A stretch of 20,000 nt of DNA from Catajapyx aquilonaris. Its lineage: Eukaryota. Shown piece by piece: positions 1 to 19,308 of the stretch (its first letter is position 1; every line of letters starts with the position of its first letter). Below the pieces are notes generated by a model. That model was not told where the DNA came from and made no database searches. It worked only from the letters and a program-made list of their open reading frames with translations. The position numbers were made by a program, and so were the translations under genes. The stretch spans positions 44,490 through 64,489 of the forward strand of contig JYFJ02002012.1 in assembly GCA_000934665.2 (NCBI GenBank). The letters are read 5' to 3'.

Positions 1-182
1 TACCACTAACATTCACACAATAGAGAACGTGCTGTAATCAAGGCCTCTGAGTATGTACAATTCTGCGTAGTCTTGCATAATACTGGATCCGTATCGCTCA
101 CTGATTGCAGTTGTGTTAAATTATGCCGGAAGGTTATCAATGGGGGTCTAATAAAATGCCTTCTATAAAATGTGTCAACAGA

Positions 183-3100
183 ATGAATGATGATGGCTCT
201 TTTGAGGGCCTCCTAGCGACCACAGTGGGTGAATTTGGCCGCTATCAGAAATGTTTGCTGGTGGCCTGCTTAGCTGTGACGATGCTCCTGGGAATCAACC
301 ACGATGGATATGTGGTGCATTCAGCCTCGCCCAAACATTGGTGCAAAGTGGAAGAGCTCAGCCGCACCAACTGGACCAGAGATGAGATCATGCAAATGAG
401 CATCCCCAAGGAGGAGGATGAAAAATGGAGCAGCTGTTCTTTCTACGACCGAAACTACACCCATTTAAGTGATCTCGGCTATTACGAAGCTTCGTCACTT
501 GTGGCTAACGACACATCGACTGTTCCATGCTCTTCCTGGAATTACGACAAGTCTCTGTTCATGTCCACAACTGCAACTGAGGTAAATTACACCTTGCAGT
601 TTGGAAATGTTGGAATTACAGTAATTGTTGTGAATTTCAGTGGAATTTGGTGTGCTCCAGTGCTGCGCTGCGACCTACCATCCAAGGGGTGTATATGGCA
701 GGAGTACTCAGCGGAAATTTTATTATGGCTCCGATATCTGACAGGTAATGCTTCATTGTGGGTTTAGCATCTCACTTTTTATTGAACACCATGAATTTTC
801 AGCAACGCTGGTTCACTCAGTTTCAAAAACGTGCATCTGAGGACAGAAACATGATTGTACGTAATGTGTATCACCTGTCGTAATGAATGATGCGTGACTC
901 ACTTACCAGAAACCGACCATGAGCATCAGTCATAGTATGTAGGGTTTTGACCAGTGTGAGGGTGGTCTTCACAGCGTCTAGAGTTTCTTTTACAAGCGCT
1001 TTCCTGACGTAGTTGGCTCTTTCCCAGTGCCAATTTCGCAGCTCCTTGTAATGCATCCAAAACATTTCGTGCAATTTGGAGGTATCTGCTGACTCCACCA
1101 ATTTCAAATCGTCAGGTCGAGAGCAGTAGGCTATGCTGTAGTCTTCCTTTAGCATGCTCTCCGAAGCTCGCATCAGCATGTACCCAAGGTTTCTGCAGCG
1201 TTTCAAGTCGCTCTCAAAGCGCTAATTAATAATAATAATATATATTACATTTAACAAAAATTAATACGATGTCACAACTCATCAGGAACTATTGAACACA
1301 AGATGCTGATGATTTAAAAACATTTATATCACCTCATCGTAGTCGTTTGGGTTCCTTCGACTGATTGTCATTGCGAGGTACCCTATTACTGAGGCCAGTT
1401 CGGCGACAAATGCCTTTTGGATTTTGTGAACTTGTTCTTCAATTACCACATCTCGAACAATGTGGCAGGTTTTCATTCCAAATGTGTGCTTCAATTCCTG
1501 TGAAAAGGATAGCGTGTTTTATTGCCCCAGGCTCGCACACCAATTTGCATATTTGGATAAGAGTCACGATGCTTTACCGAAAGGTAGTTGTCGGAGTCTC
1601 TCTGAACCTTGCGGTTATTGAGCTTCTCTGTCTTGGTATGTCCTAATATGTTCGTCAGATCCAGGGCCAGCGAGTCAGTGAATTTAACGTAGCTTTCAAC
1701 TTTCTAAATGATCATTAAAATGCACGTTATAAGAATTTAAATGGAGATTAAGAAAATTTTTGGGATATTCAAGTGCTGGGAATTTAATGCCATTTCTCCT
1801 CACAATTACTAAGTAATCAGTGAGAGAAAACTTAACTTGATCGATTTTAAATATTTGCTATTCATTGTTACAAATATTGTTACCATACTGAAACCGATGT
1901 TCTGGATATACTACGGCATGACAATTTTTCTTCACGACTGAATTATTCCGCATGTTCAAGGGCCTATTAGTTCATACCTCTGCCGACAGTGCCTTGGGTT
2001 TCTTTGCAAGGCTCTTCAACTGGAAATTCACGCACACTTCCAATCGTATCAAAATATCAGAATGATTGGTGAGGATTGACTGCACCTGGAGGTCTTCTCG
2101 AATGTCATCAAAAGGAGCCACTTCTTTGTTTTCCTTTATTAACTCATTCAACAACTCCTGAAGTGAAAAAAGCAGCACATTTTGAACATTGCATGTATAC
2201 AGTGTATACATGTCGGCCTATCGTAATATTACTGAGGTCTTACCGTCATCTCTGGCAAAAGGTCGCTGGCACTCTTGAGCAGAGTCCAACAATCGATTGA
2301 GTCCTCATCCATCTTGAACTTGAAAAAACTGTTTTACTTATCTGGGTGTAAAATCAGAACCCGAATTCTGACCAACTATACTGATATAGCCGACAATAAT
2401 AGAGGAATGACACTCAATAGTGTAACCCTAGAGTTGCTAATAAATAAGCAAGTGTAGCCAAAATTTCTGAGGCTGATGTACTAAATAAATTCCTGGCAAC
2501 TTATGGATGTAATTGGCGGTATGTTTCTAAATGTGAGAGTTTATAATTCAGAAGCCATTTTCATTTTTTCAGGCTAGGTCGTCGAGTAGCTGTGATGATT
2601 TCGTTGGTGCTTCTGATATTTGCCAGCTTTGCTTCAGCCCTGGTGCCTTCATATGCAGCTTTCGTGGCCATGCGTTTCTTTGCTGGTGTCGGAGTCATGG
2701 GTTCTTATGCAAACACCTACATTATTTGTGAGTAAAGTGCTGATAAATGGAATCTCCTCAAGTTACATATTATTGAGATTCGAACTTATATTCCGTATAC
2801 AGTATTGGAGATGGTTGGATTACCTCAGCGAGTTAAGATCGTCTTCTTCTACGATGTTGGAGTGGCATTTGGAATAATGGTGCTCTCGGGGTTGTCGTAT
2901 CTTCTGCGGGACTGGAGGACATTGATGCTTACCATTGCTTCTGGGTGCTCTCCCCTCCTCCTATACTACTGGTACGTAACAGCATGTGTGCATCTGAGGT
3001 CCCAAACTTAACCGAATTTTATTCAGGGTCATACCAGAGTCTCCTCGTTGGCTGCTGCTTCATAATCGACAAAAAGACGCGGAGAAAATCCTCAGAAAAG

Positions 3101-4162
3101 CCATCAAATGGAATAAGATGGACGTGACTGACGAGGAGCTTTCCTCCAAGATATCTTCTCTATCACTTGATAAAGTAATAACACCTGCTGATGCATGACT
3201 TTGTGGTATTACAATGTGCATTTCTTAACTTCAGGCCGGATCTTCAGTGTGTTGCAACGGGCTTTTGGGAGTGGTGTCGCTTTGGCGTACCCCTGAAATG
3301 AGAAGTCGAAGTTTCAAGATACATATGGCTTGGTTGGGAATAGGAGCAGCAGCTTTTGGATCAACTTACCTGGTCACTGGACTGCCCATCAGCCCTCACT
3401 TAGCAATGTTTGCATACAGCTTTGAAGCTATGATTGTTCGCATCCTTTTCTTCAAGCCTGTCTCTAAATTGCCAAGAAGGAAGGTGTTTGCAGCAACTTT
3501 TATTGGACTGTCTCTGTCACTTGTTAGCTCATTGTTTGTACCTTCAGGTAACATCTTGTACATTACACTTACGTGAGCTGGCCACTAATGTAGAATAATA
3601 TTCATTTCAACAGATTTGCCTTGGTTGGGATTTGCAGTACTTCTGCTATCCAAGATGTTCATAGCTGTCATTTTCAGCACAATTTACCTGTACACTGGAG
3701 AGCTATTTCCGACTTCTATAAGAAGCTCAGCCATTGGCGTTGGATCAGTGTTTGCTCGCATAGGTGCCATTCTTGCGCCATATATTGTGGCTCTCCTGGT
3801 AGGTTTGTGTAATTTATAGGCAAAAAAAAGTATTGCTTACTATAAGGGCAATTTCATTTCAGTCGCCGTATCATAGCGCAATTCCAGGAGGGATATTTGC
3901 AGCTTTGACTACATGTGCAGTTATCATGGCCCTTCTCCTTCCTGAGACAAGAGAAGAGAATCTTCCAGACACGATTGCAGATGTTGAGAATTGGCGTCAG
4001 CGTAAGAGAGGGTTAGTTGAACAAATGCCTTGGTTATCAATGTGTAGCTAATTATGCGTTGATAACGTTGCATAAATTCATATAAGATTACGAGAAAGCT
4101 AATGTAATTGCATGATCCTTTGCAGGATAGCCGGTGCTGGAAGTGGAGACGATGCTTTGTAA
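183..4162 (+). CDS. SLC22-family (organic cation/anion transporter-like, MFS) paralog 1, ~552 aa, 9 coding exons
   Basis: Hand-spliced GT-AG exons 183-581, 641-744, 2573-2727, 2803-2971, 3027-3174, 3235-3547, 3614-3798, 3863-4011 and 4126-4162 total 1659 nt in one frame. SLC22 hallmarks: GEFGRYQ; large Cys/N-glycan loop (HWC...C...C..W.YD...TEWNLVC); SDRLGRR; RFFAG; IPESPRWL; ELFPTSIRS; LLPETR; 12 hydrophobic segments. The start is uncertain (ATG 183, ATG 123, or an upstream phase-2 exon onto the acceptor at 181). The short last exon is inferred from the same donor position and phase in paralog 2. Confidence 0.92.
778..783 (-). terminator. Polyadenylation signal AATAAA of the nested antisense gene
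   Basis: TTTATT at 778-783 on + reads AATAAA on -, about 30 nt downstream of the TGA at 815-813 and just inside the host intron (host donor at 745). Confidence 0.6.
813..2312 (-). CDS. Nested antisense 6-exon gene, 292-aa uncharacterised, probably helical soluble protein
   Basis: Minus-strand exons 2312-2244, 2157-1978, 1703-1578, 1497-1333, 1221-907 and 836-813 (69+180+126+165+315+24 nt). All five introns are GT-AG (donors gtaaga, gtatga, gtaaag, gtgata, gtaagt) and phase 0. The spliced ORF is stop-free from MDEDSIDCW to MHVFETE*. There is an in-frame stop upstream of the ATG and an AATAAA about 30 nt after the stop. This model accounts for ORF-track hits 871-1206 and 1972-2211. Confidence 0.8.
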
Positions 4163-5939
4163 ATCTCAGGGATGATTGCTGCCTACAAGAGGAACCAGTA
4201 CAAGAAGATATTTTTGTGGCCATACATTATAATTTTTTAATTTGACAATGATGTTATTACGCTTATGAGCCTTCAAAGGCAATCATGAATATTTCTAAGA
4301 CATTTTATAAACGAGGACAACTATTTTTATTTTGTTGCATGATGTTGTACAAGTATGTAGTACACATGTACACGTAAAATGCTGCATTTTTGATATATTT
4401 TTATTGGTTACAATCGTAATATGACCTTTTAAACGTTAAGAGCATGTTCTCATTACTACTTTTTATAGCAAGTTACTACAGTGAAACACGACTAAATAAA
4501 ATACCCGGGATGCAATCGAAAATGATTAGTTATGGTATACATTTGCATAACCCAATCGCTTGTGTATTTCTTCCATATAAAGCTGAAGCCTGTTCATGTG
4601 GAAAATTTTTGTGAACAGGACCTTATCCTTTTAGAACAAAAAATAAATAAATCTACACAATATGATCAGTCATCTGATAATGAACAAGATATTGGAATAC
4701 GGTATACTCTGCATATTATTTTTCTGGAAGCTGGCAGTAATTTGCCTCGTTTCAAAATGTAGTAAATATATCGTATAGAACTACAAATATACGATATCTT
4801 ACATTTTTCATAGGACCTTAGTTAACTTTAACCTTAAGCTTAAACTTATGTTAAGTTGGAGTAACCTAATAGCTTCAAATTGTTTTCGGAAGAACCTTTG
4901 ACGTCATGCTCATGTATGAAGTAATTGAAGAAATCATAAACGTATACAGTATGGGACATGCAATCATTCAATTGATTCGGTGCTCCGAATCTGCTGGTTT
5001 AACTGGCGATGCCGTAAGTCATCCAGCACAGTAGATCACCAGTGCAGGGAGGTAATATGGCTATCACTAGCACTAGTGATCCAGATGATCCTCCGGAGTC
5101 AAAAAGGTAAGAAAATACTCGTCTGATACAGGTTATCAGTATCAATATGAAAATGTAAAGTAGTATACTTGTCTGTAGGATATTACACAAATGTGTAATA
5201 CTCGTGCGAATTTGAACGATAATCAAGATGAGAAACAAGTCTGAAAAAATATCTGAAAGAAAGTGTAGCACTTGTTATGTCTGCGGTTTCATGGTGACGC
5301 ATTATAATTACCTGTCCATGTCAATCATTTTGCTCGTAATTGGTATATTTCTGATGGTCTTCATGGAGAACATTTTATGACCAGTAAAAGTAGGCTTACT
5401 AATATGGCTCACTTAGCACTTATATCACATGTTGGTCTTCACTATTAAGACGCTGGTGATAAGAATGTCAATATTATCCAGACATCAAAATCCCAAATGT
5501 TATCTCGAGACCATAGACCTCCAATATCACTTGTTTTCAGGCTATCGTGGCCCAAGTGAGGGGTATAGTGTTTTGACTTAAGGCTGGTTGTACCAAAGCA
5601 GGTAATACTGGGAATGATTGATGTTTTACTGATTACTGTTTGGCACATAATAATTACTACATACTAGGCATATTTAACAAGAGAGGGGTTCGAATATTTC
5701 AGAGTATGGTGCAACCTGGAATACCAAAGTGATTTACTGTAAGAAATCATCATCAAACATTACTCCGTATTATAAATATTTCAGACGAAACGCTTTTCTC
5801 GAAGTCACGTTTCATTGATTACATAACTGAATTAGAAAGGGTAAATTGGTAAATGTAACCAATCAATTCATTTGTGGACATATTGGCCCAGAAATCCTTG
5901 CGTTCAACACCTCTAGCAGATTCGTAAAGAATATATCAA

Positions 5940-8741
5940 ATGTCTGCAAGAATAATCCGGGACGGATCACGTCCTTATTCAGAAAGGTAAGGTAATAAGT
6001 ATATGAATATAAAATGACACATAAATCTGCAATTATAAAATGAGATAAAACTCACTATGTATGTTTATGGAGTCCCAAAATGTTGCTTTTTATTTAAGCC
6101 CAGGTGATGGTTGCTCTTTTGAAGAAGTCCTGTCATCGACTGTGGGCGAATTTGGTCTGTATCAGAAAGTGCTTCTTGCGGCATCATGGGCTGTGACAAT
6201 TACTCTGGGAATCAACCACTACGGATATGTGGTGCACTCTGCCTTGCCCAATCACTGGTGTCAAGTGGATGAGCTCAGAGACACCAGCTGGACGCAAGAT
6301 CAGATCATGGAAATCAGCATCCCAAAAGAAGGAGACAAATGGAGCCGGTGCTTTTTCTACCAGAGAAACTACACCCATCTGAAGCAGTTCAGTTTCCTCG
6401 AAGCTGTGACAATGGTCGAAAATGTCACAGCCCCAACTACCTCTTGCTCTTCTTGGCACTATGATAATACATTCTACTCCTCTACTACCACAACTGAAGT
6501 AAGGGACCTATATTGTACACCATACCGGTACATTAATTAGTCAGTAATTATTAATAATAAACATCATTAGAAAAATCATAAAAACACATTGATACAACAT
6601 ATAAAGAGAACTTCTATTTGAATTGTCACATTGAAAATTTATTCCATCGTGACTCTGGTTATTCTGAAATAAGTCAAGATCTTATTTAATTTTGACATCA
6701 AACACATACCTTTTTTGATAGCTTTTATTGAATAACGTTACGTATTCATTCCAATATTTCAGTGGAATTTGGTTTGCTCCCATGAGGCGTTACGGCCTAC
6801 AATTCAAGCAGTGTACTTATCCGGCGTACTCGTGGGAAATTTAATAATGGCTCCTATTTCTGACAGGTTTGTAATAATTTTTAATTTAACTTTAAAAAGG
6901 TATCATGTCACTTCATTTCACTCGAATTAAAAATAGCAGCATTTTATTCTCACTCCGCTGTAAATAGGCCTGCACATTATATTTCTTGAAGGTTGGGACG
7001 TCGTGTAGCAGTATTGTTGTCATTGTTCCTGATAATAATAGGCAGCTTTGCCTCAGCATTGATTCCATCCTATGGATTATTTTTACCTCTTCGTTTCCTG
7101 GCTGGCATTGGTGTTATGGGATCGTACGCAAACACTTACATTCTATGTACGTATGTCTTTGTTAGTTGTTATTATTTCCAGTTGTGTCTAATGTCCCATG
7201 TGCCTGGTTTGGTTTTAGTGTTGGAGTTTGTGGGGTTCTCTCAGAGGATAGCAGTTACCTGCTTTTATGATATGGGAGTATCAGCAGGAGTCATCATGCT
7301 CGCTGGAGCATCATATCTTATGACAGACTGGAGGACGTTGTTGTTGGCCACAGCCATTGGGACCCTTCCACTGATTCTGTATTATTGGTAGGTCACAAAC
7401 ACAACACGTCTCCAGCAATTGCAGTGCATTCAATATTGCAGGATTATACCAGAATCTCCACGTTGGTTGCTTCTGAAGAGAAGGCAAAAAGAAGCAGAGG
7501 TCATCCTGCAGAAAGCCATCAAATGGAACAAACGCGACGTGTCAGACGCACAGTTGTCTTCTGTGCTGACAATCCCCGTCGAAAATGTAAGCATTTGTCG
7601 CCAATCAACTTCTTCATGACGCAAGTGGGTGATGTAACCACTGCGTTATCTCAGCTTCCTACAACATCGCTAGATGGCAAACACTAGTCAGATTCATGCC
7701 TAAATGCAGTGCTAATGTGATTGAATGGACCTGTGACCCTTGACCAGTTTGAATTTTTGGCACAGACAAAGAAGCCCAGATGTGGGATGGGACTTTTTAC
7801 CTTATGGCTCACACCTGAGATGAGAAGTCGTAGCCTAAAGGTGCACGTAACATGGTTGGCCATAGGAGCAGCCTCCTTCGGGTCAACATACTTGATCGTC
7901 GGATTGCCCATCAGCCCTCATTTTACCATGTTGCTCTACAGTGTTCAAGCGATCATCATACGGCTGCTTCTTTACAGACCTATTTCCAAGCTGTCAAGGA
8001 GGAAGGTGTTTGCAGCGTCATTCATTGGATTGTCGCTCTCACTTGCCTGCTCATTATTCATACCTGAAGGTCAGCACCATTGCTTTGATTGCTGTTCTGG
8101 GTTTACCATCTCAATGTATCCTCAGAGTTACCATGGGTTGGGCTGGCAACTCTGATGGTGTCCAAGATGAACATATCTATCAATTTCACCGTGATTTACC
8201 TCTTCACCGGCGAACTGTTCCCGACCTCAGTGAGAAGTGGGGCTATTGGAATAGGATCTGTGCATGCACGTATTGGCGGTATCTTTGCACCGTACATTGT
8301 GGCGCTTCTGGTATGTCTTACATTCCATACCAACTGCTCATGATGATGGGAAACATTTATAAGCCTGTCATGATGCTGGGGTGTATTTCTTCAGGTGCCG
8401 TATCATCGCGCAATTCCAGCAGCCATATTTTCTGCACTTAGTGCTTGTGCAGCTGTTATGGCTCTCCTTTTGCCAGAAACCAGAAGTGAGAATCTTCCGG
8501 ATACGGTTGCAGATATCGAAATGTGGCGTCAACGTAAGCATAAGTAAGAGAGGAATTCAGAGTTATTATGATTGGTTCTATTAGTTATTTAGGTCAGTAA
8601 TATATAACTACCATAATTTCCTATTAATGTCACTACCCTCTAAAATATGCCAATTATTTTTATATACTGTATTATGCTTGTTTTATTTCCAGAGCAGAAA
8701 AAGAAGAGCCAGAAGAGTTGGCACTTTCTCCTCAAAAATAG
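5940..8741 (+). CDS. SLC22-family transporter paralog 2, ~568 aa, 10 coding exons
   Basis: Exons 5940-5986 (tentative), 6099-6498, 6763-6866, 6992-7146, 7219-7387, 7442-7586, 7766-8069, 8126-8310, 8395-8543 and 8693-8741 total 1707 nt in frame. It has the same motifs as paralog 1 (GEFGLYQ, WNLVC, SDRLGRR, IPESPRWL, ELFPTSVRS, LPETR) and identical internal exon sizes of 104/155/169/185/149 nt. AATAAA follows at 8752. Confidence 0.92.
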
Positions 8742-10045: not shown

Positions 10046-10421
10046 TATGTACTCATACTAGTGCGGAAATAACCAAGTGGCACTACATAAATAGTATCAA
10101 ACACGCCAGAAGCATAACGTATCTCATAGTATCAGGATAACATCAAGGTAAGCTTATCAAAAGCGACGTTGCCAGCCATTGGCACCGACGCCCACCTGTA
10201 TCACGTGACTGTGGACTATGCACCTTCTGAAGAGGTTGGTTCAGCCCCAGCTATAGCCAGAAGGCCACAAACCTCGGTGAGATTGAAGCAGTAGGATTTC
10301 CACTCTCGGTGCAGCTTTACAAAGTATCTGCAGGCAAGAAAGCAACTCATACCCGAAAGTGAATAGTGGTTTGTCAAAGACTGTATAGGTGGACCGACAA
10401 GTGTCGGCAGCATCCACCATC

Positions 10422-13400
10422 ATGAAGCTGTTGTGCCTAGGACTGCTCTTTTGGGCGGGTCTGCACTCGGCCATCGCCAAGACAGGCAAGTGTTTCCATT
10501 GCATGTTTTTCGCAAACGTATACTATTTCAACTTTACCATCGAAACTTAGAACTTATGCTATACAATGAAGCTTGATTGATACTGAAAGAAATTATGACA
10601 AGCATTTTAATGAGTACAAGTAGGTGCTGGTATTTGAAAACCCAATTAATTATCCTGCTAAATACACACAGAAATTTGTATCTTTATTTGCACTTTGTCT
10701 TAGTGTCTTAATATTGTATAGTTATGGTTGGGGGATTGAATTTTAATTTTCAAATTTGGTCATCTTTTTTGGGCGGACAAAAGCAGATTTTCAAGTTGGG
10801 TAATGGAGTGCAAATACGGATCCAGTGGTGCCTTATTGGTGTACCTGAATGTGGCAACAATTTAACGAACTATCCGCTATCGGCGCCTAAAAAAGCGTTT
10901 GTCAAACACTGACTCACTGATAGTGACTTGGCAACTGTAATCACCAAGATTGTGCGTCTGTTTGCATTCGCTTTCTACGAGGAGACAAAAAACGGTTACA
11001 AGCCCAAAATACAACATTGGTGTCCCTCAACTTATTTGTTATGGAATGTATTACTTTATGAACATAACTGTATCAATACGTATGATATGCGCATGTATGC
11101 AAACATTATTGCAATGTACCAGTTTGTGCAAAAAGATTCAGACAAGTGGTTCGAGGTTTTACTGTTTCATCCTTCATTGGATGAGTAATATTTTCCAAAC
11201 CATTTTCGTGAACCTAGCCAGCTCTAAATCGAAAAGTCAACCTATCATTATTTATCTGCCTTTGTGCGATTATTCGTGAACTTCTTACAGATAAACCAAA
11301 AGTCAATTATCACTTACCTTGAGTAAAATTCTGGTCTGGCTATTCAACTGTGAATCTGACTAATACTGAATTCTCCATCAGACTATATGTCGGCAGCAGC
11401 CAGAGATGACACCCCCTATGTTCTGACCCCTCAAGAACTGGCCAGAATTAGGGCCGAATTCATGTACCCCTTCTCGGACCAAGGTCCTCCAGAAGGTCAC
11501 GGAGACTGGATGAACAACATAAAAGACACAAACCCACAGATCAACCAACAACTCAATTTCCTCTTCCCATTCTACGGATTTGGATACAACTACACCTGGG
11601 TACGGAAAAGTACTCCAACTTTATAGTACATGAACATAATCCTGTGGTTGTCTATTGGCAGGTGTCTCTCAATGGATTCTTAGCATTCAGTGACTCTCCA
11701 GACATATTCACGTACCCTCTTAACTTTCCGATGAAAGATTGGCCTTCAGTGAACGACCCATCCTTCATAGGACCGTGGTTCAGCAGGTGTAGCATTGGAA
11801 AACAAAAAGGTGTTGAGGCAGACAGACGACGACCTGGAGTGTACTTCCGGTAAGTAATGAGGGTAATGAGACACACACCACAAATATTTTTAACATATAT
11901 ATTTTCGCAGTTTGGAGCGTGATTTGCCTAAACGAGTGGACAAGTTTGGTGTCCAGCTTAGGGAACGTCTTAAGTGGGACTTGAGAGAATCGATGATCGG
12001 AACTGAGGCTTTTGAACCTCGACATTCCTTCATTACCACCTGGAAAAATGTCACGTTTGCTGGAGGTTACCGATCTCAAGAGGTGGTAAGTATCGTCTTA
12101 GCACTGCTGTTGCGGTATGACTCTTGAGTGTTTTTGTCGTTTTTCAGACCAACACCTTTCAGTCCGTACTCACTACGGATGAGATCCGTACTTATGTCAT
12201 TTTCAACTATCAGTTCATTGAATGGACAACTGCCACTGAAGCTGGAGGAGATATCAACAAGGGTTTGGGAGGCACCCCCGCTTTCGTGAGTGTCTAGTAT
12301 TTTTCAACTCATTTTAACACAAAAAATAGTACCAACAAAATACTCGTTTATTTTTGTGGCACAGATCGGATTTAATGCTGGAAATGGAACTAGATCCTAC
12401 GAATACAAACCATTTTCACAAACGGCCAAGATCATGGACGTACTCACCACTGGAAATGCGAACGGATTCCCTGGTCGACATGTGTTCAGAATTGACGAAA
12501 ACATCTTATCTGGAGTTTGCCGTCCTGACTACTGTAAGTGACACGTAATATTTTTTGACTATGAGTGTCATTCAGCTGTCCATGAATTTTTCCCATTATT
12601 TTCATTATTTGGTTGATTGCTTCATACTACTTTCTGTCACAGATCTTACGAATCTGCCCTTGACCTTCGCCCCAGAGAATGGCAACATGCTGGGTGGAAC
12701 ATTGGTCAACATATCTGGGCCTTGCTTCAAGCCAAACATGAGGGTCAATTGCAGGTAGGTAACACTTTGTATGACATACCCTCTACTTCAACTAACATGC
12801 AACATCCTCTCAGGTTCTACACGACGGAGGTGACTGGATGGGTTTTTGATCAGAACAGAGCTGCATGCATCATGCCACGAGTCTACACTAATGGGTACAT
12901 CGACTTCGCTGTTGCTATCGACGGAGGCCCATACTACTGGAAAGGACGTTTTCTAGTTGGTAAGTCCCGATTAATAACAGTACAAAGATCCAGATTCATG
13001 CTGTTTATGTTTGTGCAGAAACTCCACTGACAACCCATGACATGATATGGTTCCAAACTGACGACGTACAGTTAAAAAATCCGACATCATTTCAAATCAA
13101 CTGGGACATTGGGAACTTGACGCAGAATACAAACGCGCGGGTGCAAATATCGCTATGGGGCTATCGAGAAAAGACGATCAGACCAGAAATCGTCTATATT
13201 GACACCCTAGTACCTGGTACTGCCAATATTGGTAAATATACCTTGACAATGTCAGACTACGACACCAAGTACAACACGGACCTGCTGGACCTCGATTTCG
13301 GTTTCATCCAGATCAACATCACAAATCCTCAGTCAGAGTTGAAAACATCCATATCTCCGTGAGTATACCGGTACATCTCTCGATTGGAATCATGCATGAT

Positions 13401-16186
13401 GGGTTCGATGTTCCGCAGGCAAATCTGGAGCAAGCCCATACCACTGGCCTGGTATTTCCGAAGACAGTGGGAGAGGCAGCTGGGGTACGACTGGGTGGTG
13501 ACCAAGTGTTTCAACTGGATCTACAGGGATCGTAGCTACCGAAACTTCGCAGGTGCACTGCCAATGTGTCCATGTCTTTTGCGTCAGGCTGTGGCTGACA
13601 AAGGACGGTATGCACCTGACTTCTCCTGTGACAAGGACGGGAACAGCAATTGCTACTACCATCAAGGAGCCAGACATTGCGTCAGGACAGGGCTGCCAAA
13701 GTACGTTGATAACAATAAATAACTATAAGCACTACTACAACTAAGTGACCATTTTCAGCACTGACGGTGCCGGACAGCAATGTTGCTACGACAAAGACAA
13801 TTACCTGATGATGACTTCGGACAATATGTGGGGAGGTAACCCTCAGAGAGTGCATAATATCGGTATCCTCCCATGGAATGAAGTCGGAAAGGTGCCTTCT
13901 CTGTCATACTGGTACCAAGATATGATTGCCTTCTACATGTGCTGCATGTGGCAGTCGGAGCAGTCTGACTCTTGCATCAGGTACCGGTTCGAGCGACGTG
14001 CATCTCAGGACTGCAGAGGGTACCAACCACCCGCTGTCGGTAAGGCATTGTTAAACCCCAACGACAACGATGTCCGTGTGTACACAGCTTTAACACAGTC
14101 AATGTCTTTCAAGCCGCTGTCTTCGGAGATCCCCACTTCTACACCTTCGACAACCTGCAGTACACGTTCAACGGCAAAGGAGAATTCGTACTGACTCGTG
14201 TCAACACTGCCTCGATGCGTTTGGATGTGCAGGCAAGATTCGAACAAGTGCCACGAAATTTCTACGGGCCTGTGGGTGGTACGACTCTCACAGCCGTTGT
14301 CGGTACGTGCCATCATATATCCGTACTGTTCACTGTACTAATCAAATTTTTTTAAAAAAATTGAACAGCTAAGGACAACTCTTCGACCCAAGTGGAGGTT
14401 CGACTTCGACCTCTGGTAGCTCGCTGGAGGTACAATCTTGATGTTATTGTCGATGGACAGCGCACGTACTTTGACCGACCACCGCAGAAGATCCAGTACT
14501 TCAGAGGTTTGTGATCTGATATTTTTTTTCGAATTTGAGACATAAGATGTTGTTTTTGGGTCTCAGGAGTGACTGTGTACACTCCAAGCAACATCCTGAA
14601 CCAGAGTCAAGTGGTCATTATGTTCCCGACTGGAGCAGGAGTTGAAGTAGTCGAGAACATGGGACATATGACAGCCCGTGTGTACTTGCCAATGGAATTT
14701 GTGGTGAGTTGAACTCTAAAGTTAGGTTCACACGGACATTGTTGTCATTATTTGAGTCGTTTTGTGTAAATTAACATTGAGTCTGTTCGTTTCAGAACAA
14801 AACGTTAGGATTGCTCGGAAATTGGAGTTATGACGTTACAGACGACTTTACGTTACCGGATGGGACAAGAGCATCGACTAGCAATCCGCAGGATAGTTTA
14901 CAGACTGTCCATGACAACTTTGGAATGAAATGTAAGTCGACTCATGAGCTGAATATACTCGTACTCTAAAAGAAAAGGGTGAAGAATTTAAAAAAATTGT
15001 ACATGGTACATATTATTGTTTTTTCATTGCATACATTTTTCAGGGGTACTGGACGATAAGGAGGATCCGCAGAAAGGAAAGTCTCTATTCTACCACGACG
15101 CAAATCGTCCATCCACATTCTATTACGACAAGGACTTCAGGCCAGAGTTTAGAACACGACCTGAAGATATTCTACCTAAGAATGTGTACGTATTATAATT
15201 CTATGCTTATACCCAGTTGGACACACCAATATAATAATTTTGCTCAAAATACTCAGAACCGTGACTGCATCTGACGTCCGAGATTTTTGCGGAGATTCGT
15301 ACCAGTGCCAGTACGACTTCTCGGTCACTTTGGACAAAGATCGTGCCTTCTACTGCAAGTACTACCAGGACAATTACGTCAACATCAGGTTCCTCAACTT
15401 GGCTTATGGTATTAAAATTGATAAAAAGATTTTCTAAAAAATATAGAGCGGGATTTTTTAAAACAATAAACCTAAATGGTGTCTGGTGTATTGATGACCT
15501 TTTTCCTGCAGTGGTGTCGTGCGGGTCACTGACGACCCCCAAGCATGGTCGAAAGAGTACCTACGCCTTCATCCCCAACACCATGGTGAAGTTTGATTGC
15601 GACCCCGGATATCTTCTGGTTGGAGACAGACGACGCTGGTGCTACGCCACTGGAGAGTGGAACATACCCGATAACGGTCCAGCTCGATGCATCTGTAAGT
15701 ATTTTCGTAGCAATGTAAAGTTCTGTACATTTTCGTGGTGTCATCAATGTTTGACTTCCCTCATGACATCCTATCCAACCCCAACCTCCATTAGCCTCGG
15801 CCGACTACCAGGCCCAACAAGCAGGTATCGCCACCGGAATAGTGATGGCCGTGTTGATCCCAGTGATCCTCCTGGGTCTGGCCATCTACATAGTGTTACA
15901 ACGTCGTCGATCCGAGGACACATTCATCAATCCTTCCCGACAGACCCCTCGAACCTCAACCCCTCGTCCTGCATACCCCATGAAGGAAGTAGACAGCAGC
16001 ACAGCCAGCGTTGACCCATCCCGGTCACTCAACACCAGCAGGACCAGCCTCGATTCCAATTGCTCAGGAAAAAAGAAACGCAACTACGATCGTGTCTACT
16101 ACACACACGAACCTCTGCCTGGAAAGGACAATACAGACGGGTTCGAAGGCAAGGACTGGGATATCGGAGAGGAAACTACGGCTTAA
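10422..16186 (+). CDS. mesh: Protein mesh (SUSD2/MUC4-like smooth septate junction membrane protein), isoform A, ~1193 aa
   Basis: Signal-peptide exon 10422-10485 ([21 protein letters not shown]), then exons 11382-11599, 11662-11849, 11911-12085, 12148-12285, 12365-12533, 12643-12754, 12814-12959, 13019-13358, 13419-13700, 13759-14039, 14114-14302, 14369-14506, 14567-14703, 14796-14931, 15044-15185, 15257-15408, 15512-15694 and 15795-16186 (3582 nt, in frame). Domain signatures: NIDO (FPFYGF, VSLNGF, TWKNV, TNTFQ, GFNAGNG); IPT ([14 protein letters not shown]); AMOP (CPC...QQCCYD); VWD ([25 protein letters not shown]); Sushi (SCG...FDCDPGY..C..GEW...C); one TM helix; tail ending ETTA. Confidence 0.93.
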
Positions 16187-16765
16187 TAGCTGGAAATATA
16201 TACACATTTTTATTCTTGATAACACAATATAAATTACATTGTATGGATAGCTTGTAACTGCCTAGGTCGACATGACCCATTCATTTAGATTGGCTGCTGT
16301 AGGACGGAAGAGCAATACCTGTTCGTTAAGGATGATTTGAAACGGAGAGGTATTACGCACCTGACCAGTGACTAGTTTTGTGACTGTTTTTTTTTTAAAA
16401 AAACTGATTGTGTACAGACCTCCAGGAATTAATAAAAAGGAGGAAATCAAAAGAAAGGTTTCCGTTCCACAGCGGCGTTAAAAGGGTCAGTTTTAAATAT
16501 TTATAGTCCTTCCCAGGCAAGGTACCTTACACATATTGCGTTTATAACGAACCAAAAATAGGCGATTGGAAATAGAGGCTTGTCTTGCCGGTGTGGAATA
16601 GAAATCTTTCCACGATTGTTCCTTCCAATGAAAACTATATGGAAAGCTTTCATTTCGAGTCATCACTTCCTCTTTCCCGCACTCATGACATCAATCCAGC
16701 AGTGGCCTCGTGGCTTGCATTGACTTCAGAATATGATAGGATAATGCTCTAATATTCCTACACAG

Positions 16766-18621: not shown

Positions 18622-19308
18622 TAGAGGGTGGATAGTTATGTTTTTACACATATTTTTCCTCTGTATGCACGAGGGCGTGATTTGTACGAAAATCCTAATC
18701 ATGACATCTGGAGTCCAAAAAAGTGGGTTTTATTTTGCATATAAAAGAATATTTCAAGCTTAACGAGATATTTTGGCTCTAGCAACATATTTGGAATATT
18801 TCACACTTTTTCCTTCATTAATCTTGTTATCTACGTATTTCTATTCAAATTATGTCAGGTCCTGCAAAAAAATCATGGCTGGAATATCGTAAACAATATG
18901 GCTGAGATCCTGCGCAGGCACTCTGCAACTGCGGTGCCTGAGATATACACTCACCAGCATGTCTCCATGGTTAAGTTCGCACCAATAACCACATGCGATG
19001 TGGAGAGGTCATTTTCCACTCTCAAGGCCACTCTCAGTGAGAGAAGGCAGCAATTGACTGCATCAGATTTGGAACAAATAATTGTCTCGCATTGCCAATT
19101 CAATGAAAGTAGTGAAATTGAAGACTATTGATGAAGTTGTGATTAAGTTGTGATGTTACTACTGTAAGAAATAAACCTCTTGTGTGAGATAAAGTCTAAA
19201 GTCCATGGCACATAATTTGTATGTATTTATTTTTCAGGGTAATGCAAGAATAAATCGCGAATTGTACACTGGTTTTAGAGAATATTTGAGAGAATATTGT
19301 GCCCTCTA
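18622..19308 (+). mobile_element. Non-autonomous (internally deleted) hAT-superfamily DNA transposon, 687 bp
   Basis: Terminal inverted ends TAGAGGG...CCCTCTA are flanked by an exact 8-bp direct repeat, ATCATAAG (18614-18621 and 19309-19316). An 8-bp TSD is characteristic of hAT. The element contains a transposase C-terminal fragment. Confidence 0.85.
18859..19131 (+). pseudogene. hAT-like transposase C-terminal (dimerization-region) fragment
   Basis: Open frame VLQKNHGW...FAPITTCDVERSFSTLKATLSERRQQLTASDLEQI matches the hATC-type P.T...ERSFS.......R..L motif. No upstream catalytic-domain coding sequence lies inside the element. Confidence 0.75.

Follow-up and report, generated by a model that had tools for sequence, protein, structure and literature searches.

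A candidate multi-exon gene nested antisense within an intron of an SLC22-like transporter gene of Catajapyx aquilonaris

The transporter locus and the nested gene model

The stretch of Catajapyx aquilonaris DNA analysed here (20 kb, hereafter the window) exhibits two tandem copies of a transporter gene, with 61-66% identity over the two regions that were compared. The second intron of copy 1 (position 745 to 2572, plus strand, phase 2, 1828 nt) is flanked by exon 2 (641 to 744; WNLVC...APISD-R), assigned from its reading frame and splice sites and paralogous to the copy 2 exon ending at 6866, and by exon 3 (2573 to at least 2732; LGRRVAVMISL...YANTYIICE), assigned from Pfam and tblastn matches, both on the plus strand. 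The intron begins with GT (745-746) and ends with AG (2571-2572). Joining exon 2 to the sequence from 2573 onward restores the host reading frame (...APISDR|LGRRVAV...). The tandem paralogue carries an intron at the equivalent codon and phase (6867 to 6991, plus strand), which is 125 nt long and has no nested gene. By sequence criteria the host intron is genuine, since the frame is restored at ISDR|LGRR and the paralogous intron interrupts the same codon in the same phase.

Several matches bear on the identity of the host. The ORF 2547-2732 matches the Pfam families MFS_1 (E-value = 3.9e-4) and Sugar_tr (E-value = 1.3e-3), the ORF 2998-3195 matches Sugar_tr at 25.6 bits (cutoff 22.3), and MFS_1 matches are found on other host exons. 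A 640-aa MFS protein from an ant aligns along both transporter copies in tblastn, host exon 3 included. These matches, together with a long hydrophilic loop that follows membrane segment 1, identify the host as a predicted MFS-type transporter. The more specific name SLC22-like, with the family motif assigned to the sequence after the loop, is tentative.

Six exons on the minus strand, joined through five GT..AG introns, form within this intron a CDS of 879 nt encoding 292 amino acids. Exon 1 (2244 to 2312, 23 codons) begins with the ATG at 2312-2310 and ends at a GTAAGA donor. It is followed by exon 2 (1978 to 2157, 60 codons), exon 3 (1578 to 1703, 42 codons), exon 4 (1333 to 1497, 55 codons), exon 5 (907 to 1221, 105 codons) and exon 6 (813 to 836, seven codons and the TGA at 815-813). 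The start context is good, with A and G at positions -3 and +4, respectively, and an in-frame stop occurs seven codons upstream of the ATG. The introns measure 86, 274, 80, 111 and 70 nt. All five donors match GTRA/GTRNG, and four of the five acceptors are YAG with at least six pyrimidines out of ten; the acceptor of intron 2, before exon 3, is the weakest (5/10). Retention of any intron would disrupt the ORF, through in-frame stops in four cases and through a frameshift in the case of the 80-nt intron. The exon coordinates, the translation and the five junctions of the original prediction all reproduce exactly. All five introns are in phase 0, which is unusual and could stem in part from the assembly of the model out of ORFs.

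As had also been claimed, the unit has an AATAAA of its own (783-778, minus strand), 30 nt after the TGA; some 33 nt separate this signal from the 5' splice site of the host intron. A second AATAAA (724-719) lies within host exon 2. The nested CDS (813-2312) and its AATAAA (778-783) are located wholly within the intron 745-2572, on the strand opposite to the host, and the segment from ATG to stop occupies 1500 of the 1828 intron bases (82%).

The least certain part of the nested gene is exon 6. Its codon score in frame is -0.938 by the model described below, and its 24 nt are too short to judge. The splice sites of intron 5 are strong, with a GTAAGT donor and an acceptor ending in ...TGTCCTCAG. 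Were intron 5 left unspliced, the ORF (871-1221) would stop 11 codons further (stop at 873-871). The gene has six exons in our model, possibly five.

The 260-nt flank upstream of the ATG (2313 to 2572, minus strand, 34% GC) should contain the putative 5' UTR and promoter of the nested gene. Consensus matches in this flank are an Inr-like TCATTC (A at 2408), a TCAGT at 2384 and a TATAAA at 2545; the DPE consensus has no match there. The 5' UTR may overlap host exon 3.

Coding character of the nested exons

The nested exons differ in base composition from the nested introns (45.6% against 33.3% GC). The GC contents of the nested CDS at codon positions 1, 2 and 3 are 49.8, 31.4 and 55.6%. For reference, GC averages about 46.6% over the three codon positions of neighbouring known exons, and amounts to 29-32% in known introns and 35-38% in intergenic sequences. 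When the exon mask was shifted circularly, only 15 of 1827 shifts matched the real contrast between exon and non-exon GC, all of them within 60 nt of the proposed position, and none of the 1707 shifts beyond did so. This optimum at the proposed boundaries counts against a chance ORF.

A codon model trained on 1428 codons from neighbouring genes gives the nested CDS a score of +0.140 bits per codon in frame, with negative scores for the five other frames and for the introns; none of 1000 shuffles attained this score. The proposed frame is the best one in all five large exons. Exon 2 scores +0.239 in frame against -0.605 and -0.517 in the other two, and the in-frame scores of exons 3, 4 and 5 are +0.137, +0.092 and +0.170, respectively. 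The specificity of these scores is limited, some antisense ORFs over known exons scoring equally high (e.g. 248-442, minus strand, +0.204; 13322-13510, minus strand, +0.243).

The original prediction held that five compatible junctions in a row are unlikely by chance, an argument that turns out to be weaker than claimed. With any GT-AG pair admitted and up to five introns, the best spliced ORF on the strand of the nested gene is 1017 nt long. Dinucleotide shuffles under the same permissive rule give 771 ± 96 nt, with one of 200 attaining 1017 nt. In 12 natural non-coding strand-windows of equal length, the best ORF ranges from 558 to 1140 nt and is above 1017 nt in one. Since unrestricted GT-AG sites often yield spliced ORFs of about this length by chance, a series of compatible junctions is by itself weak support. 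When the splice-site rules are tightened, the spliced ORF measures 804 nt, against 393 ± 114 nt for shuffles (0/200 attaining it) and 342-711 nt for the natural controls (0/12). The evidence from composition is stronger than the junction argument. Coding on the plus strand of the host intron was also considered and dropped: its ORFs score at most 0.055 bits per codon and its strict spliced ORF (396 nt) is close to the shuffle mean.

The nested unit thus appears to have coding character, within the limited specificity of the codon score. The GC contrast and the codon score bear out the earlier description of a complete, canonically spliced antisense gene inside a single host intron. We consider it likely that the minus strand carries here a genuine protein-coding gene with a transcript of its own, lying whole within intron 2 of the SLC22-like (MFS) transporter gene.

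Predicted protein and searches for relatives

The putative product is a protein of 292 aa, 34 kDa and pI 5.9, presumably soluble. Neither a signal peptide nor a membrane segment was found in it; the maximum KD(19) hydropathy is 1.34, and the first 30 residues include eight acidic residues and one basic residue. Proline and glycine are scarce (1.7% each). The helical hydrophobic moment averages 0.281, compared with 0.219 ± 0.021 (maximum 0.267) in 200 shuffles. Single-sequence AlphaFold2 models, made for isolated exons folded without alignments, consist only of helices: residues 2-10 and 17-52 for exon 2 (pLDDT 84), and residues 2-27, 36-43 and 47-104 for exon 5 (pLDDT 67, pTM 0.36). The exon 5 model is of moderate confidence, with residues 21-44 below pLDDT 50. 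Submitted as four separate chains to a complex prediction, exons 2-5 scored 0.02 against a mark of 0.34, a value that we count neither for nor against the model. Self-comparison of the protein revealed no internal repeats. The protein is thus predicted to be largely made of amphipathic α-helices; hydropathy, hydrophobic moment and the single-exon models all agree with the initial characterization of a helical, amphipathic product devoid of a signal peptide or membrane segment. Given these features and the lack of repeats, the product is most likely a helical-bundle or coiled protein that resides inside the cell and would act by binding other proteins and not as an enzyme.

Homology searches were performed with single exons of 42-105 aa, not with the joined 292-aa protein, which limits their sensitivity. 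Exons 2-5 exhibited no match above the cutoff in Pfam (searched at E-value≤10). The sole weak lead, V-ATPase subunit C (PF03223; 13.3 bits against a cutoff of 23.1, E-value = 0.054, 76 residues of a 371-position model), was taken as a chance match. The best PDB sequence match for the four exons has an E-value of 0.25. A search for homologues of exon 5 among longer proteins returned 70 candidates, none with E-value≤0.01. A phmmer search with the 105-aa exon 5 against 1.84 billion representative sequences gave a single match, a 1836-aa repeat protein. We judged it spurious, since one short motif, matched in 12 stretches of that protein, sums to the score. In the ESM Atlas, the top feature matches of exon 5 are unnamed bacterial and viral clusters (score 0.91), with a recognition value of 1828, below the mark of 2300; exon 2 had no usable match. 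Scans of metagenomes yielded 446 pattern matches for exon 5 and 595 for exon 2, none of which was confirmed, and none of the 68 pattern matches in IMG/VR was confirmed as a viral relative. Foldseek found no PDB match (E-value≤10) to the exon 5 model, a result of little weight because the model is a partial set of helices of moderate confidence. Rfam gave no match at gathering scores over the whole window, and Tandem Repeats Finder no array at positions 1-6000. The statement that no known family is matched thus holds in the Pfam, PDB, phmmer and Atlas searches with single exons. The further claim that the gene is lineage-specific is unproven, given that the proteomes of the species and of its close relatives are absent from the databases and that the searches were made exon by exon. 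The results are consistent with a nested gene that is either fast-evolving or restricted to a poorly sampled clade. The genes next to it, "mesh" in particular, have a crustacean appearance.

The nested unit might be a real gene and still not an orphan: it could be a highly diverged orthologue from a known, fast-evolving helical family, for instance one that supplies a small subunit to a conserved complex inside the cell, recognizable only by full-length profile-profile or structure comparison. We regard this as possible but doubtful. The shortness of the single-exon queries favours it, as does the poor sampling of the clade: the closest database match of a neighbouring conserved "mesh" exon is only 68% identical, and the host first exon has a single match, at 33% identity. 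With five introns and an ordinary codon usage the gene looks old, the nested genes of Drosophila are reported to evolve fast (PMC3814207), and, according to a preprint, the homologues of many claimed orphans have gone unrecognized (10.1101/2023.05.28.542624). Against such an origin, 1.84 billion representatives offered exon 5 nothing beyond the spurious match, and the four exons gave neither a Pfam match above cutoff, nor a PDB match below an E-value of 0.25, nor a usable Atlas lead. The presence of five introns in the CDS and a codon usage similar to that of its neighbours argue against a very recent de novo birth.

Origin of the nested gene and comparison with known systems

A non-functional unit, whether a spliced ORF that arose by chance in a long intron or the relic of a gene, still open but no longer expressed or translated, is in our view improbable. 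The lack of a detected homologue, the 558-1140 nt reached in control windows under permissive splice rules, the false positives of the codon score and the uniform phase 0 of the introns would all fit such a unit. However, the GC contrast coincides with the exon boundaries of the model, the proposed frame is the best in 5/5 large exons with a codon score attained in 0/1000 shuffles, and none of the 212 controls reaches the length of the strict-site ORF. Start context and stop are intact, as is an AATAAA at a suitable position. Finally, the host intron exceeds its counterpart at the shared site of the paralogue about 14-fold in length (1828 nt against 125 nt), an expansion expected if a maintained insert was carried there.

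The comparison of the two transporters suggests that a real nested gene would have entered, or been retained in, only one of two old tandem paralogues. No sequence similar to it was found elsewhere in the 20-kb window, the paralogous intron included. Its expression may be narrow and unlike that of the host, by analogy with Drosophila nested genes, and an effect on the host, if any, would be exerted through transcriptional interference. A more specific scenario, in which a clade-restricted gene arose in or moved into the intron after the transporter duplication and its antisense transcription tunes or silences this paralogue alone, seems to us very unlikely. If it were true, the new gene would have brought both a new helical protein and an expression divergence of the two tandem SLC22-like transporters.

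A relic of a hAT dimerization domain (18745-19128) points to past transposon activity in the window. No terminal inverted or direct repeats flank the nested unit, and Pfam revealed no transposase, reverse transcriptase or viral domain in exons 2-5. As far as the window shows, the product bears no sign of being a high-copy transposon protein. That a transposable element or virus inserted into the intron and brought the gene with it, or gave rise to it by domestication, is highly unlikely: the enlarged intron, the hAT relic and the weak bacterial/viral Atlas clusters of exon 5 (recognition below the mark) are outweighed by the lack of bracketing repeats, of a second copy in the window, of a mobile-element domain and of a confirmed IMG/VR relative, and by five spliceosomal introns and a host-like codon usage, both atypical of a recent mobile insert.

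A separately transcribed protein-coding gene within the transporter intron, as we prefer to read the locus, is probably a real yet fairly ordinary find, since genes lying backwards in introns are common in arthropods, where fast-evolving nested genes with introns of their own on the opposite strand are a frequent and well-documented class (PMC3814207). The arrangement is common and bears no sign of a new mechanism. Its confirmation would add an unannotated gene without recognizable family in a poorly studied lineage; annotation based on ORFs or homology would overlook it, since no open stretch in it exceeds 116 codons. It would also offer a clean natural comparison, within an old tandem transporter pair, between a copy with and a copy without a nested antisense gene. 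Such a pair could serve to test nesting as a driver of expression divergence, as proposed for Drosophila (PMC5174743).

Titles and abstracts in the literature provided nothing relevant on genes nested in SLC22 genes. Nested genes of other hosts have been described. In D. melanogaster, 9.5% of genes are reported to take part in nested structures; the nested genes evolve faster and have narrow expression, and those bearing introns favour the strand opposite to the host (PMC3814207). Their typical origin is reported to be the insertion of short young duplicates (PMC5174743). The present case resembles the opposite-strand nested genes of these two studies (Lee & Chang 2013; Assis 2016) in that a whole intron-bearing gene lies in one intron on the opposite strand. 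The unusual length of the host intron is a further shared trait, and the lack of detectable relatives fits the reported fast protein evolution. In contrast to the Drosophila genes, the window shows no parent copy, the genome is not that of a Drosophila, and the gene is known from sequence alone.

An individual example is 2mit, which lies within intron 11 of Drosophila timeless2 and is transcribed in the opposite direction (PMC3786989). Both are protein-coding genes inside a host intron in opposite orientation, and 2mit has a function of its own. The two are unrelated in sequence, and 2mit has been characterized experimentally, whereas the gene described here is a prediction. Taxonomically restricted or putative de novo genes of Drosophila, such as the gene atlas (PMC8445463), form a further class for comparison. 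Like them, the nested gene lacks recognizable homologues or domains, is of modest size and is presumably non-enzymatic; unlike them, it has five introns, 292 codons and a codon usage similar to that of its neighbours, which suggests an older gene.

The host intron and the nested gene model

Joined together, the plus-strand segments 120-581, 641-744 and 2573-2732 give an unbroken reading frame (...STTATEWNLVC...APISDR|LGRRVAVMISL...). Thus, the host interval 745-2572 is a true phase-2 intron. The host exons exhibit a Pfam Sugar_tr match of 25.6 bits (cutoff 22.3) together with MFS_1 signals, and P0006, a 640-aa ant MFS transporter, maps along both the host gene and a second copy. The window thus carries two tandem SLC22-like MFS transporter genes, at 120-4050 and ~6049-8544 (plus strand). 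With 61% (80/132) and 66% (63/96) identity in the two regions compared, the copies stem from a tandem duplication of considerable age. At the codon and phase of the host intron, copy 2 carries an intron of only 125 nt (...ISDR|LGRR..., 6867-6991). Given this counterpart and the 59 nt of host intron 1, the 1828-nt host intron is a size outlier, about 14 times as long as its equivalent in copy 2.

A reading of the minus strand over 600-2800 and a rebuild of the model from coordinates reproduced exactly the six exons of the original prediction (2312-2244, 2157-1978, 1703-1578, 1497-1333, 1221-907 and 836-813). The coding sequence is 879 nt long (292 codons plus TGA), and its ATG-to-stop span occupies 1500 of the 1828 bases of the host intron. 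The introns of 86, 274, 80, 111 and 70 nt are all bounded by GT..AG. All five donors fit GTRA/GTRNG; four of the five acceptors show YAG with at least six pyrimidines in ten positions, the acceptor of intron 2 having five. Retention of any intron destroys the ORF, by in-frame stops in four cases and by a frame shift in the fifth. The start codon is flanked by A at -3 and G at +4 and preceded, seven codons upstream, by an in-frame stop. All five introns are in phase 0, and such a run (813-2312, minus strand) is unusual; every exon length is divisible by three, so any internal exon could be skipped with the frame kept.

The AATAAA attributed to the nested gene is present at 783-778 (minus strand), 30 nt past the stop. 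Just ~33 nt separate this signal from the 5' splice site of the host, so the nested 3' end must come within a few bases of host exon 2 or overlap it slightly. A second AATAAA occurs at 724-719, within host exon 2. The weakest part of the model is the 24-nt last exon; if intron 5 were not spliced, the protein would stop at 873-871, 11 residues past exon 5.

Chance, composition and codon usage

The original prediction regarded five compatible junctions as unlikely by chance, an argument that holds poorly. We searched by dynamic programming for the longest ATG-to-stop path with at most five GT..AG introns, in this locus, in 200 dinucleotide shuffles and in 12 natural non-coding strand-windows. 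With any GT-AG allowed, the locus yields 1017 nt on the minus strand and 945 nt on the plus strand; shuffles yield 771 ± 96 nt (maximum 1050), one of the 200 reaching the real value, and the natural windows 558-1140 nt, one of the 12 exceeding it. With stricter sites the locus yields 804 nt (minus) and 396 nt (plus), and the real value is reached neither by shuffles (393 ± 114 nt, maximum 765; 0/200) nor by natural windows (342-711 nt; 0/12).

Composition provides better evidence than the junctions. The GC content of the nested exons is 45.6% against 33.3% in the nested introns, with 49.8, 31.4 and 55.6% at codon positions 1, 2 and 3. Elsewhere, neighbouring known exons average ~46.6%, known introns 29-32% and intergenic DNA 35-38%. 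When the exon mask was slid around the host intron, the real GC contrast (0.117) was reached by 15 of 1827 shifts, all within 60 nt; further away none of 1707 did so (maximum 0.080).

Scored with a table of 1428 codons from neighbouring genes, the nested coding sequence obtains +0.140 bits/codon in frame, -0.42 and -0.30 in the other sense frames, and -0.10 to -0.19 in the antisense frames. Its introns score -0.39 to -0.67, and plus-strand ORFs in the host intron at most 0.055. Shuffled versions score -0.35 ± 0.08, none of 1000 reaching the real value. The proposed frame is the best for all five large exons, though not for the 24-nt last one. This codon score is supportive rather than decisive, since certain ORFs that lie antisense to known exons likewise obtain positive values, among them 248-442 (+0.204) and 13322-13510 (+0.243), both on the minus strand and probably shadows. 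Minus-strand ORFs with coding-like scores (63-67 codons) include these two and one at 10219-10419, which is intergenic, ahead of a mesh-type gene. All evidence combined, we consider it very probable that the nested gene is a genuine coding gene.

The predicted protein and its relatives

The predicted product (34.1 kDa, pI 5.9, GRAVY -0.43) is poor in Pro and Gly (1.7% each) and abundant in Leu, Glu and Lys. As originally predicted, there is neither a membrane segment, given a maximum 19-residue hydropathy of 1.34, nor a signal peptide, given eight acidic residues and one basic among the first 30; a transit peptide is absent on the same grounds. Self-comparison detected no internal repeat. The proposed helical, amphipathic character fits both the helical hydrophobic moment, whose mean of 0.281 exceeds that of every one of 200 shuffles (0.219 ± 0.021, maximum 0.267), and models of separate, unjoined exon stretches. 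Exon 2 alone folds into helices 2-10 and 17-52 (pLDDT 84), and exon 5 into helices 2-27, 36-43 and 47-104 (pLDDT 67, below 50 for residues 21-44).

Consistent with the claimed lack of a known motif, no Pfam match for exons 2-5 is above cutoff; the best, V-ATPase_C, was rejected (13.3 bits against 23.1). PDB sequence searches with four exons gave a best E-value of 0.25, a word-indexed search for longer proteins found no relative among 70 candidates, and ESM Atlas searches with exons 5 and 2 yielded nothing usable. No pattern match was confirmed in the JGI metagenomes (0/446 for exon 5, 0/595 for exon 2) or IMG/VR (0/68), and Foldseek returned no PDB match to the exon 5 model at E≤10. A full phmmer run with exon 5 on 1.84 billion representatives returned a single match, which we judged spurious: an 1836-aa repeat protein whose 12 aligned stretches all come from one short motif.

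These searches used single exons against libraries lacking the source lineage (the window's own ORFs were not returned). Thus, "no homologue" here means without easily detectable conservation across sampled arthropods, and does not equal lineage-specific. In the same window, the first exon of the host transporter obtained a single match (33% identity). The conserved AMOP exon of the mesh-type gene obtained 76 at E≤1e-10, the named ones being "protein mesh", with crustaceans (62-68% identity) as the best named species. Judging by these matches, the window may derive from a crustacean lineage that the protein libraries do not cover. Protein mesh is a septate-junction protein; the gene (~11360-16200, plus strand) is multi-exonic with NIDO, AMOP, VWD and Sushi domains.

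Origin and class of the nested gene

A transposon or viral origin is unlikely, as the 20-kb window contains no second copy or similar DNA of the nested gene, no repeats bracket it, and exons 2-5 contain no mobile-element domain in Pfam. The nearby repeats are only short and probably due to chance. Elsewhere in the window, a 128-codon open frame (18745-19128, plus strand), whose hAT-family C-terminal dimerisation motif (PF05699) scores 21.0 bits and narrowly misses the 21.4 cutoff, is probably a transposase relic. Five introns and neighbour-like codon usage point to a gene that is already established and speak against a recent de novo origin. Since the paralogous intron lacks it, the nested gene either was gained by copy 1 once the duplication had occurred or was lost from copy 2.

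The nested mRNA would be transcribed independently, starting within the 260-nt flank 2313-2572, where Inr- and TATA-like matches are at consensus level only, and ending just inside the host intron. Its product may be an intracellular all-alpha protein working through protein-protein contacts.

Overall, the observation behind the original prediction stands and its interpretation does so only in part: the locus is probably an opposite-strand nested gene for an unrecognised helical protein, of a class already known. It would not surprise a specialist, but would help in annotating the source lineage and could serve as a test case with paired paralogues. In published work, nested structures include 9.5% of D. 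melanogaster genes, nested genes show faster evolution and narrow expression, and those with introns tend to lie on the opposite strand (PMC3814207); nested pairs diverge in expression, which is ascribed to transcriptional interference (PMC5174743). The present locus agrees with the D. melanogaster nested-gene class in every testable respect; by this analogy, its expression would be expected to be narrow and to differ from that of its host.
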